A DNA stretch of 64,000 bases from Eledone cirrhosa (lineage: Eukaryota), in contig OZ024743.1 in NCBI GenBank assembly GCA_964016885.1, positions 263,252,001 to 263,316,000 on the forward strand, in the 5' to 3' direction. Every line of letters begins with the position of its first letter. Positions within the stretch are counted from its first letter, which is position 1. Positions 13,096 through 58,092 of the stretch are shown in pieces. The translations under genes and the position numbers were made by a program. Under the pieces are notes generated by a model. That model did not search any database and was not told the DNA's origin. It worked only from the letters and a program-made list of their open reading frames with translations.

Positions 13096-13173
13096 ACCTC
13101 TACCATGGTTTCATCCGCATTTTAAGACATCCGATAACATTGGATATCTAGAGCTTCGGATTCTTCAGGAAGT
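13096..13173 (-). ncRNA. Type I HHR with enlarged stem II (family B)
   Basis: Minus strand: acttc-CTGAAGA-atccg...cggat-GAAA-ccatgg-TA-gaggt. Stem III is the palindrome ACCATGGT. An inverted repeat lies adjacent at about 13193-13230 / 13316-13354. Confidence 0.75.
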
Positions 13174-14630
13174 TAGCTCAAATTTAGACAAAAATTTAGA
13201 CAATTAATTTTCCAAAGTGATCGCGCCAAAAATACATTCAAAAATAGCTAAGAGTCGTGACGTGGCAGCGGTCAAGTTAGAAAGGATGTGATTAGTTGCT
13301 TACGGCTGGTAGGCTTTTTGCGCGATCACTTTGGAAAATTAATTGTCTAAATTTGAATTTATAATAATATTTGATTACTGGAGTTGGCACCAGTATGAGC
13401 ACTAGATGCTCTCACTATTATGTATGAGATAAAGAAGTTTCACTATGAAATATTTTTATATTTTTATTGCATAAAGATATTTTGATTTGAGTCCACACAT
13501 ATGATGAAGACATCGATATAGATATATCGCATCGATAAAGACCGTGAACCAATAGCTTGTGATATGCCTGTAACCTTCGATATGGAAACAATTTAAACAG
13601 ACAACAAAATAAAAACAATTTAAAGTGAAACTTCGTTAGCTAATATATATACATACATATATATATATATATATATATATATATATATATATATATATAT
13701 ATATATATATATATATATATATATATATATATATGAAATTTCAGGTTATCAATAATGTAGTGATAATATATCGTTACGTTAGAGATGAACAGCGTACGTG
13801 CAGGTTTGCTCAACGAGTATAAATTATATTCCGGAGAAATGTAGAAAGGATGAATATAAAATGAAAGTGCTTTTGTTAAAAATTATAAATACTACCAGGA
13901 TTGAACGCCTGTCTCTATCCCCGTTTGATTGTCAAAATAGATATGAACATTCTTTATTAGTCTTAATTCTATCAACTCTTCTATTATTTACCTTTTAATA
14001 CAAACTGCTATAGATAAAATGAGATTTCTGATTTCTTGATTCAATTCCCTAATGCATATACCAGTTGGCTACTAGCATTGATGTTATTTAGTAGCAATCG
14101 AAATCTCCCCCTTCCCCAATTGACACTTTATAATTAATACTACTGCACCAAATGACCAGCCCTGTCCACTGTCCAGTTGGTCAAGTAGAGATTAAAATTG
14201 GCACTCCCAAAATTCTTATTTAGATTTACTCATGGTATTCTCATTAAAAACCCATTATATACTTGTCTAGCAGTAAATTATTTTACCATCTGTCATATAC
14301 TATCCCCTCTGTTCCTTCCTCTTTTACTAATATAAATACTTCAATTTTTCTGATTTTATCCAGTTTATCCAAAATCTCTGAAGTGACAACTGATTATACA
14401 TTTGCTATCGAATACTTGCTAACATTATATGATTACGCAAGCAGCGATACATAGGTATTCGGTCTGTTACAGAAACATATGTCAACACCTAATAAATTCC
14501 TTTTTTAACAAAAGCACTTTCATTTTATATTCATCCTTTCTATATATATATATATATATATATATATAATAGAACACTGGAGGGTTATATCTGTAGTAGT
14601 AGAGCACTCAGTCCATGGGACGAGTTTGGT

Positions 14631-14758
14631 AGAAGTAGTTCCACAACAGTTAGTTCACCATACCGAGAACAAATGTTTCACCTTGTGCGGATCCTCACCT
14701 TGGCGAGCTGAAACATTTGTTCTCGGTATAGTGAACTGACTGTTGTGGAACTACTTCT
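14631..14758. repeat. Fold-back hairpin (about 50-bp arms) with a decayed HHR-like core
   Basis: agaagtagttccacaacagttagttcaccataccgagaacaaatgtttca with a near-exact reverse complement at about 14709-14758. Minus-strand relic gTGAGGA-tccgcacaaggt-GAAA-catttgtt. Confidence 0.7.
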
Positions 14759-14929
14759 GTATATATATATATATATATATATATATATATATATATTATA
14801 CTTGGGTAGGGTCATATTTGTGTAATATTGCCAGAATTAATAACAGAACACACTCAGAATGGTTGAATAAGAAAAAACTAGAAGAAAGGAAAATAGAATA
14901 TTCTCAAAAATACCCAGATAACATGGTTG

Positions 14930-55780: not shown

Positions 55781-55823
55781 GTAATCTACGCGTTTCATTC
55801 TCGTTAGAAATCATCAGGACTAC
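55781..55823 (-). ncRNA. Type I HHR (repeated at 56091, 56401, 56711 and 57021)
   Basis: gtagtc-CTGATGA-t ttct aacg agaa t-GAAA-cgcg-TA-gattac. Stem III is the palindrome ACGCGT. Confidence 0.88.
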
Positions 55824-57281
55824 ATATCCAGTGCTTTTATCGAGAATGACACAGCTAGAGACTTATAGAATACTTAGCTGTGTACAGGAACTGGTTTGAC
55901 AGAGCGGTTGCCGGTCCGGCAGAAATTAGAAATTGGAATAAATGCTCTGAAATAGCGATATATATGTGAATATAGACATAGAATATTCGAAAATATTCTG
56001 TATGTTTATAATAAACATTTTGAAGACCTAATCGCTATAGAATAGAATACGTCACGTATTACAATTAGATTCTCGATAAAAGCAAGGGAAGTAATCTACG
56101 CGTTTCATTCTCGTTAGAAATCATCAGGACTACATATCCAGTGCTTTTATCGAGAATGACACAGCTAGAGACTTATAGAATACTTAGCTGTGTACAGGAA
56201 CTGGTTTGACAGAGCGGTTGCCGGTCCGGCAGAAATTAGAAATTGGAATAAATGCTCTGAAATAGCGATATATATGTGAATATAGACATAGAATATTCGA
56301 AAATATTCTGTATGTTTATAATAAACATTTTGAAGACCTAATCGCTATAGAATAGAATACGTCACGTATTACAATTAGATTCTCGATAAAAGCAAGGGGA
56401 GTAATCTACGCGTTTCATTCTCGTTAGAAATCATCAGGACTACATATCCAGTGCTTTTATCGAGAATGACACAGCTAGAGACTTATAGAATACTTAGCTG
56501 TGTACAGGAACTGGTTTGACAGAGCGGTTGCCGGTCCGGCAGAAATTAGAAATTGGAATAAATGCTCTGAAATAGCGATATATATGTGAATATAGACATA
56601 GAATATTCGAAAATATTCTGTATGTTTATAATAAACATTTTGAAGACCTAATCGCTATAGAATAGAATACGTCACGTATTACAATTAGATTCTCGATAAA
56701 AGCAAGGGAAGTAATCTACGCGTTTCATTCTCGTTAGAAATCATCAGGACTACATATCCAGTGCTTTTATCGAGAATGACACAGCTAGAGACTTATAGAA
56801 TACTTAGCTGTGTACAGGAACTGGTTTGACAGAGCGGTTGCCGGTCCGGCAGAAATTAGAAATTGGAATAAATGCTCTGAAATAGCGATATATATGTGAA
56901 TATAGACATAGAATATTCGAAAATATTCTGTATGTTTATAATAAACATTTTGAAGACCTAATCGCTATAGAATAGAATACGTCACGTATTACAATTAGAT
57001 TCTCGATAAAAGCAAGGGAAGTAATCTACGCGTTTCATTCTCGTTAGAAATCATCAGGACTACATATCCAGTGCTTTTATCGAGAATGACACAGCTAGAG
57101 ACTTATAGAATATTTCGAATATTCTATGTCTATATTCACATATATATCGCTATTTCAGAGCATTTATTCCAATTTCTAATTTCTGCCGGACCGGCAACCG
57201 CTCTGTCAAACCAGTTCCTGTACACAGCTAAGTATTCTATAAGTCTCTAGCTGTGTCATTCTCGATAAAAGCACTGGATAT

Positions 57282-57324
57282 GTAGTCCTGATGATTTCTA
57301 ACGAGAATGAAACGCGTAGATTAC
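57282..57324 (+). ncRNA. Type I HHR (repeated at 57592 and 57902)
   Basis: Same motif on the plus strand, enclosed by the 16-bp stem attctcgataaaagca/tgcttttatcgagaat. Confidence 0.88.
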
Positions 57325-58092
57325 TTCCCTTGCTTTTATCGAGAATCTAATTGTAATACGTGACGTATTCTATTCTATAGCGATTAGGTCTTCAAAATGT
57401 TTATTATAAACATACAGAATATTTTCGAATATTCTATGTCTATATTCACATATATATCGCTATTTCAGAGCATTTATTCCAATTTCTAATTTCTGCCGGA
57501 CCGGCAACCGCTCTGTCAAACCAGTTCCTGTACACAGCTAAGTATTCTATAAGTCTCTAGCTGTGTCATTCTCGATAAAAGCACTGGATATGTAGTCCTG
57601 ATGATTTCTAACGAGAATGAAACGCGTAGATTACTTCCCTTGCTTTTATCGAGAATCTAATTGTAATACGTGACGTATTCTATTCTATAGCGATTAGGTC
57701 TTCAAAATGTTTATTATAAACATACAGAATATTTTCGAATATTCTATGTCTATATTCACATATATATCGCTATTTCAGAGCATTTATTCCAATTTCTAAT
57801 TTCTGCCGGACCGGCAACCGCTCTGTCAAACCAGTTCCTGTACACAGCTAAGTATTCTATAAGTCTCTAGCTGTGTCATTCTCGATAAAAGCACTGGATA
57901 TGTAGTCCTGATGATTTCTAACGAGAATGAAACGCGTAGATTACTTCCCTTGCTTTTATCGAGAATCTAATTGTAATACGTGACGTATTCTATTCTATAG
58001 CGATTAGGTCTTCAAAATGTTTATTATAAACATACAGAATATTTTCGAATATTCTATGTCTATATTCATATATATATATATATATATATAAT

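Follow-up and report, generated by a model that had tools for sequence, protein, structure and literature searches.

Palindromic stem III words of hammerhead motifs in a 64-kb stretch of the Eledone cirrhosa genome are consistent with a published dimer-type mechanism

Hammerhead ribozymes with an unstable, palindromic stem III are known from several repetitive elements, and the literature has carried the dimer model of their cleavage since 1988-2016. Perreault et al. (2011; PMC3088659, Fig. S8) tabulated differing palindromic stem III or loop III words across animals and read them as double-hammerhead pairing. For the hammerheads in the pseudo-long terminal repeats (pLTRs) of Penelope-like elements (PLEs), Cervera and De la Peña (2014; PMC4209133) described the unstable palindromic helix III, found palindromic helix III in PLEs of rotifers, shrimp, and mosquitoes, and proposed a dimer model, single motifs being inactive in vitro and dimers showing weak activity. 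Lünse et al. (2016), by its title and two citing reviews, concerns PLE hammerheads that have a palindromic stem III loop and are cleaved as dimers, and the reviews PMC6765202, PMC6466107, and PMC6155905 repeat the dimer model and cite that work. In the retrozymes of PMC7229834, a monomeric coral copy cleaved at ~0.8 per min, and axolotl monomers cleaved to 6% and 22% in one hour and far better as dimers. Here we analyze a 64,000-nucleotide stretch of the Eledone cirrhosa genome (assembly GCA_964016885.1, contig OZ024743.1, forward-strand positions 263,252,001 to 263,316,000; hereafter the window), in which a first-pass annotation had claimed that every hammerhead family uses a different palindrome as stem III, pointing to dimer-dependent cleavage.

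Stem III words of the window motifs

The motifs are very probably type I hammerheads with a dimer-type mechanism, derived from the pLTRs of several unrelated PLE families and, in the case of family J, from a non-autonomous 310-bp tandem element of the non-LTR retrozyme kind (LTR, long terminal repeat). The palindromic pattern is real, far above chance, and was correctly read as belonging to dimer-type hammerheads; publications already cover both the variety of palindromic stem III words and cleavage that depends on dimers. The window, where 64 kb hold about 13 groups with a hammerhead core, makes a compact example set.

The descriptor used to recover the pattern requires both core boxes, a stem I of at least 4 bp, a stem II of at least 4 Watson-Crick pairs, U16.1, and H17 and leaves the interior of stem III free. 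It gave 16 type I matches from seven families in the window, against one match in 200 local dinucleotide shuffles (0.005 per window), and 14 of the 16 have perfect stem III palindromes. Stem III is perfect in families A, B, H, I, and J and carries one mismatch in C, and the core at +34914 is not palindromic. Families E and G, with an 8-bp stem I, failed the stem II rule, and the motif at 51774 has a stem I of just 2 bp. The central 4-mer is palindromic in six of the seven families (binomial P about 1e-6 at p = 0.072), and six of seven are complementary at the innermost stem III pair, one that no single strand could form by itself (P = 0.002). Chance or selective listing therefore has next to no likelihood as a source of the palindromes: the annotation did omit four non-palindromic cores and tidied the words of C and E, but the search was blind to stem III, and significance holds on a harsh count of the central 4-mer (6/11, P 5e-5). 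The Rfam hammerhead models gave no match across the window at the gathering score. As a relaxed descriptor was also required for the minimal hammerhead ribozymes of PMC4209133, this null weakens only a filing as canonical Rfam hammerheads.

Taken copy by copy, the eight words quoted in the annotation all directly follow GAA at hammerhead positions, and perfect palindromes are present in 24 of 28 copies of nine named families (A 5/5, B 1/1, C 0/2, E 1/3, G 4/4, H 3/3, I 1/1, J 8/8, and 51774 1/1) and in 19 of the 22 copies that retain both core boxes. A self-complementary segment from A15.1 to U16.1 combined with an unstable monomer stem III was likewise found in 24 of the 28, and is lacking in +34914. 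That every family is palindromic was an overstatement: 8 of 13 core-bearing groups include a perfect copy and a ninth would do so by inference, but four cores are not palindromic. That the words differ between families was likewise too strong, since C (inferred) and H would have ACAATTGT in common; the actual C copies read ACAATTTT and ATAATTGT, neither of them perfect. The word given for E, ATGCGCAT, is present once, at +50505, and is the majority of the three copies, but the full-core copies read ATGCACAT and ATTCGCAT. The ACGT of 51774 is the standard minimal-hammerhead core, not a family word.

Element context and modeled dimers

Two broken open reading frames (ORFs) in the window join a reverse transcriptase (RT) to a GIY-YIG-like domain, and their Atlas look-alikes at 0.94-0.95 include GIY-YIG clusters. 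The 51774 hammerhead lies ~1.5 kb 3' of the ORF on the same strand (55191-53281), and the +18419 hammerhead lies ~490 nt 3' of the other (15216-17928). Family H is placed 3' of an endonuclease remnant, with an inverted H copy just 5' of it. Self-BLAST of the window, used to map repeats and inverted copies, revealed inverted pairs in A, C, E, G, and H and truncated copies in A, E, and H; inverted copies are a published structure of PLE insertions (PMC4209133; bioRxiv 10.1101/2021.04.23.441226). An origin of families A, B, C, E, G, and I in PLE pLTRs is presumed, as is activity of any hammerhead copy in Eledone cirrhosa. Most copies in the window are truncated, inverted, or decayed.

Family J has a 310-bp period, units that are 99% identical, and one type I hammerhead per unit, with 8 complete motifs. 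It fits the definition of a non-LTR retrozyme in PMC7229834, which asks for tandem units of 150-450 bp, two or more of them in succession bearing a complete type I hammerhead. The unit is non-coding and low in GC, and its monomer is strongly self-paired (z -4.86). J is a young, intact, retrozyme-like array suited to a comparison of monomer and dimer. The orientation of the array flips near 57107-57115, with five minus-strand and three plus-strand units and arms that are 100% complementary over 965 nt; read-through RNA across the flip would form a long duplex.

Under the proposed mechanism, a single molecule would form a stem III of 0-3 bp and be unstable, and two copies would pair palindrome to palindrome into a stem III of 4-10 bp serving two catalytic cores, with stem I likewise formed between the two. 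Cleavage after H17 would be favored in tandem precursors and disfavored in the unit-length or circular product, which, if the model is true, explains how precursors are cut and circles spared. Any self-complementary word would suffice, so families could drift to different words. Dimer-enhanced cleavage and circle formation in these elements are assumed here by analogy, from papers on relatives.

Modeled energies are consistent with this mechanism. With the monomer stem III treated as an isolated hairpin whose loop spans 3 nt or more, leaving 0-3 bp, and with an energy model that omits tertiary contacts and co-transcriptional folding, monomer stem III came to +1.5 to +6.0 kcal/mol in every family able to form one, and homodimer duplexes of intact palindromes came to -1.7 to -11.2 kcal/mol. 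The unconstrained fold of J at 57270-57650 is a double hammerhead, and the inter-unit stem III reached P 0.97-0.98 in two of six stretches. Across four stretches compared, the double hammerhead lay 0-6.4 kcal/mol above the minimum, and two single hammerheads lay 13.4-17.2 kcal/mol above it. Together, the J fold and the hairpin and duplex energies suggest that the monomer would be disfavored and the dimer within reach. The modeling thus favors the dimer-dependent cleavage put forward in the first-pass annotation, an inference whose novelty is precluded by PMC3088659 and PMC4209133. Cleavage "only in multimeric transcripts" is too strong. Families other than J would need a partner copy supplied in trans or by an intact tandem elsewhere.

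The word "only" is further limited by an account that we consider quite possible, though we do not favor it, in which the 8-10 nt words (B, C, E, G, H, and I) work chiefly in the monomer, as tetraloop hairpins of 2-3 bp that loop 1-loop 2 contacts keep in place, the dimer boost being optional, and the 4-6 nt class (A, J, and 51774) alone is obligately dimeric. Closing the monomer stem III costs ~1 kcal/mol in B and H and is favorable in I in our model, and in PMC7229834 most invertebrate retrozymes self-cleave efficiently, the monomeric coral copy cleaves at ~0.8 per min, and monomer cleavage was 22% with a 2-bp helix III and 6% with a 1-bp one. Yet that 2-bp axolotl motif, too, was cleaved far better as a dimer, and a role restricted to monomers leaves the palindromic loop of B, H, I, G, and the E majority unexplained. 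The hairpin account is compatible with a dimer-type mechanism and can stand beside it.

To look beyond the window, we considered a metagenome scan that left stem III free and was aimed at relatives of E and G. It returned 54 matches in 53 loci, of which 35 represent one PLE-linked family unrelated to E or G; the other 19 were set aside, L023 alone among them having at least 4 Watson-Crick pairs in stem II. Once near-identical flanks had been merged, L039 (probably identical to L030) and L032 (which lacks one base) removed, and L049+ added manually, the 35 matches came down to 22 rows. A fully self-pairing 10-mer is present in 14 of the 22 rows, 6 by Watson-Crick pairs and 8 with a central G-U. 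Counted over all rows, the center of the word has G-U in 10, A-U in 8, C-G in 1, and no pair in 3, and the next pair is A-U in 17, U-A in 1, and unpaired in 4, with one two-sided change at each of these two innermost pairs. Pairing is 91.8% in stem III and 92.9% in stem II; stem I was fixed by the search pattern, and the tree is mostly unresolved, with 3 of 20 branches well supported. These rows lean towards pairing at the RNA level.

The same family bears on the alternative that palindromy is kept at the DNA level, as a protein-binding or nicking site or as a by-product of reverse-transcription fold-back. PLE insertions are rich in inverted structures, and the G word ATATATAT resembles the abundant (AT)n, with 1948 occurrences. 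However, the word always runs from A15.1 to U16.1 within an intact ribozyme fold, truncated copies of A, E, and H start in stem II and not at the palindrome, and DNA palindromes make up only 6 of the 22 rows in the metagenome family, versus 14 of 22 that self-pair as RNA by way of G-U, a state that may reflect few events. We therefore regard DNA-level maintenance as highly improbable beside RNA pairing.

The commonest stem III of this metagenome family (rows L001-L053) has a central tandem G-U, and the hammerhead sits 3' of a Hydra-like endonuclease tail. The adjacent ORF shows a CxCx5C pattern in one frame, a linker described for Hydra-clade PLEs (bioRxiv 10.1101/2021.04.23.441226), and Pfam assigned no family to the ORFs of the rows. 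Its homology to the 42196-42381 remnant would make the latter Hydra-clade-like. A second PLE-type endonuclease tail in the window, at 2257-2616 on the minus strand, is also homologous to the metagenome-family ORF (E 2e-12), and the search for an intact hammerhead core 3' of this tail found none. Among the listed BLAST matches, which are mostly of low complexity, none covers the hammerhead of the metagenome family in the window.

Several observations weigh against a dimer-type, PLE-derived reading of the window. The four non-palindromic cores are +34914 (ACAGACTTAT), -24616 (ACAGTGT), -23334 with an inverted copy near +24228 (ACACTGT/ACACTCT), and +18419 (AGAATT..); the first passes the strict descriptor, and the other three have weak or broken stem I. 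J is the sole family with neighboring complete copies on the same strand, the others being single or inverted, and even in J the inter-unit stem III had P = 0.0 in four longer stretches, where an inactive local fold was ahead by 5.7-6.4 kcal/mol. Some invertebrate retrozyme hammerheads cleave efficiently as monomers (PMC7229834). In the metagenome family, one or more stem III pairs are broken in 8 of 22 rows, and covariation over the whole structure is not clearly above control, 30-65 of 500 shuffles being as high. As to the PLE context, the Pfam matches of the two ORFs (RVT_1, E 2e-4 and 9e-4; GIY-YIG, E 0.029) are below curated cut-offs, and linkage to an ORF, sought in the window for A, B, C, E, G, I, and J, was found for none.

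The pairing-code question

The first-pass annotation also suggested that the palindromes could act as a family-specific pairing code, the sole potentially new part of its reading, and the evidence here does not favor it. Such a code would have been selected to prevent mixed double hammerheads between families. In its support, when the eight intact words are paired across families, 27 of the 28 stem III duplexes come out with a positive modeled energy. The words are nonetheless no more orthogonal than random palindromes of the same lengths: the observed mean is 4.68, against 4.19 +/- 1.21 for the null, and 38% of 300 null sets are as high. Mixed dimers also need both stem I helices cross-paired, and no family pair but E/G reaches at least 4 bp both ways, so that stem I already blocks most cross pairs. 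Words are moreover reused. C (inferred) and H have a common word, that of I occurs in 5 of 22 rows of the unrelated metagenome family, which itself uses several words, and the CGCG loop is present in other animals by our reading of the scrambled PDF text of PMC3088659 Fig. S8. Copies that pair in cis, inside one tandem, require no code. Because random palindromes are equally orthogonal, stem I is a barrier, and words are reused, specific pairing is likely a side effect and is not shown to be selected; we consider the code improbable.

Stem III alone would discriminate in E/G only. These two families have an identical 8-bp stem I, which leaves stem III as the sole predicted barrier between them (duplex +5.3), and the E x G mixed dimer is 6-7 kcal/mol worse than the mean homodimer, as computed with the mismatched E copies. 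One could imagine that their central GCGC and ATAT were driven apart as a self/non-self code against mixed hammerheads cutting in trans, an idea to which we give as little credence as to the general code. No homology between E and G was found past the core and stem I (about 17 nt; scores of 32-34 versus shuffled maxima of 29-30), so the GCGC/ATAT difference cannot count as covariation. A further candidate, a heterodimer of -23334 (ACACTGT) with -24616 (ACAGTGT), was rejected as coincidence: the two are complementary, but the second copy of the first core reads ACACTCT, and, judged by eye, only one of the two cross stem I helices (3 bp) can form. In the literature covered, which did not include Lünse et al. 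(2016), no treatment of cross-family mixed dimers or of a pairing code was found.

Surroundings of the motifs and comparison with described systems

Table 1. Positions of hammerhead motifs and PLE remnants in the window
Feature	Position	Strand	Remarks
Broken PLE ORF	15216..17928	+	RT (YVDD), then GIY-YIG-like endonuclease
Broken PLE ORF	55191-53281	-	RT, then GIY-YIG-like domain
PLE-type endonuclease C-terminal remnant	42196..42381	+	Homologous (E 5e-5) to ORF beside metagenome hammerhead family
Family A hammerhead	3559..3601	+	ACTAGT stem III at 3589-3594; outside the span of the first-pass annotation
Family A hammerhead	59364..59408	-	Stem III ACTAGT; inverted partner of 60026 copy
Family A hammerhead	60026..60070	+	ACTAGT stem III at 60057-60062
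Family A, 5'-truncated copy	stem III 59908-59903	-	
Family A copy	38393..38437 (ends approximate)	-	Stem I decayed, palindrome retained
Family B type I hammerhead	13096..13173	-	Stem III ACCATGGT at 13109-13102; 5-bp stem I
Family C hammerhead	22826..22919	-	Stem III ACAATTTT, one mismatch
Family C inverted copy	stem III 23004-23011	+	ATAATTGT; core damaged
Family E hammerhead	34607..34677	-	Stem III ATTCGCAT, one mismatch
Family E hammerhead	50333..50403	-	Stem III ATGCACAT, one mismatch
Family E, 5'-truncated copy	50505..50512	+	Lacks CUGAUGA; sole perfect ATGCGCAT
Family G hammerhead	37130..37190	-	Stem III ATATATAT
Family G hammerhead	49685..49745	-	Inverted partner of 49857 copy
Family G hammerhead	49857..49917	+	71-bp duplication gives second stem III at 49972
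Family H hammerhead	42071..42179	-	Stem III ACAATTGT; inverted copy 5' of endonuclease remnant
Family H copy	42862..42970	+	3' of endonuclease remnant; first core box mutated, ACAATTGT retained
Family H third copy, truncated	stem III 58760-58767		
Family I hammerhead	44793..44871	-	Stem III ACTAATTAGT; 3 bp possible in monomer
Minimal hammerhead (51774)	51775..51806	-	ACGT, no loop 3, stem I 2 bp
Family J array, 310-bp units	55615..58077	5 hammerheads on -, 3 on +	ACGCGT in all
Non-palindromic hammerhead	34909..35005	+	Passed over by the first-pass annotation; stem III ACAGACTTAT; one copy, possibly decayed
Decayed hammerhead	18417..18454	+	Stem II 6 bp, stem I 2 bp, imperfect stem III palindrome
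Hammerhead core with ACAGTGT (-24616)	24562-24641	-	7-nt segment inside ~16-bp hairpin; core-adjacent stem I broken
Inverted pair with CUGAUGA/GAAAC boxes	23272-23359 and 24209-24291	- and +	Core-adjacent stem I absent; decayed or atypical family

The motifs (Table 1) lie in repeat-rich, AT-rich DNA with many (AT)n tracts, LINE (long interspersed nuclear element) remains, and a repeat resembling a short interspersed nuclear element (SINE). The motif at 34909-35005, single in the window, has a well-formed type I fold, in which stem III is 10 nt long and not palindromic and stem II carries a long AT-rich insert. Positions 28863-33976 on the plus strand hold a long broken LINE (endonuclease, RT, and zf-RVT), a relative of it is represented by a 70%-identical 3' fragment at 38413-39300 (plus), and further RT fragments lie at 41255-41923 (minus). 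The SINE-like repeat, of ~190 bp, has at least nine copies, at 5318-5506, 6289-6453, 19715-19905, 20603-20792, 28035-28155, 37644-37755, 48447-48634, 50572-50762, and 58333-58515, and presumably resembles one present in octopus genomes.

Words of J also appear in public sequencing runs. Between 0.57 and 0.93 of the words of the unit at 57180-57489 occur in 20 public runs, with 18 organism labels from 17 studies. Among the runs listed with J words there is no RNA run, which speaks neither for nor against expression. When 57768-58950 was compared with four of 24 listed runs, J drew no raw reads, and ACGCGT was unchanged in three contigs with 1, 3, and 5 differences in ~300 nt, so few that the unchanged word says little about selection. 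The three runs with J have it as single contigs at a depth of 3.6-6.7, along with traces of the SINE-like repeat of the window, and raw DNA reads under the organism label of the best-matching run gave none on J. Trace carry-over of a very high-copy repeat is a likelier explanation than horizontal transfer. Among 47 matches in a search of viral contigs for ACGCGT hammerheads, none is type I. Viral contigs L058, L062, L071, L092, L098 (151-185), L095, and L099 have CUGAUGA, a 4-5 bp stem II, and GAAAC; they are not type I and are possibly type II or III hammerheads.

Compared with described systems, the window motifs repeat both the observation and the inference made for the repeat-type hammerheads of Perreault et al. 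(2011), whose table compares species, whereas the window compares families within one genome. They also agree with the PLE hammerheads of PMC4209133 in the type I fold, a helix III that is absent or small and palindromic, and many divergent families per genome, and in occurring mostly as single truncated copies with opposite-strand pairs 100-700 bp apart. The particular families and the host differ from those of that study, B, C, H, and I carry long stem II inserts, the window has words of 8-10 nt, and A and J have an unpaired base on either side of a 4-bp stem II. J resembles the non-LTR retrozymes and the satellite 2 of newt and axolotl (PMC7229834; bioRxiv 10.64898/2026.07.22.740005), with a 1-bp helix III and a palindromic tetraloop as in HHR_Amex1; unlike these, its array flips orientation midway.

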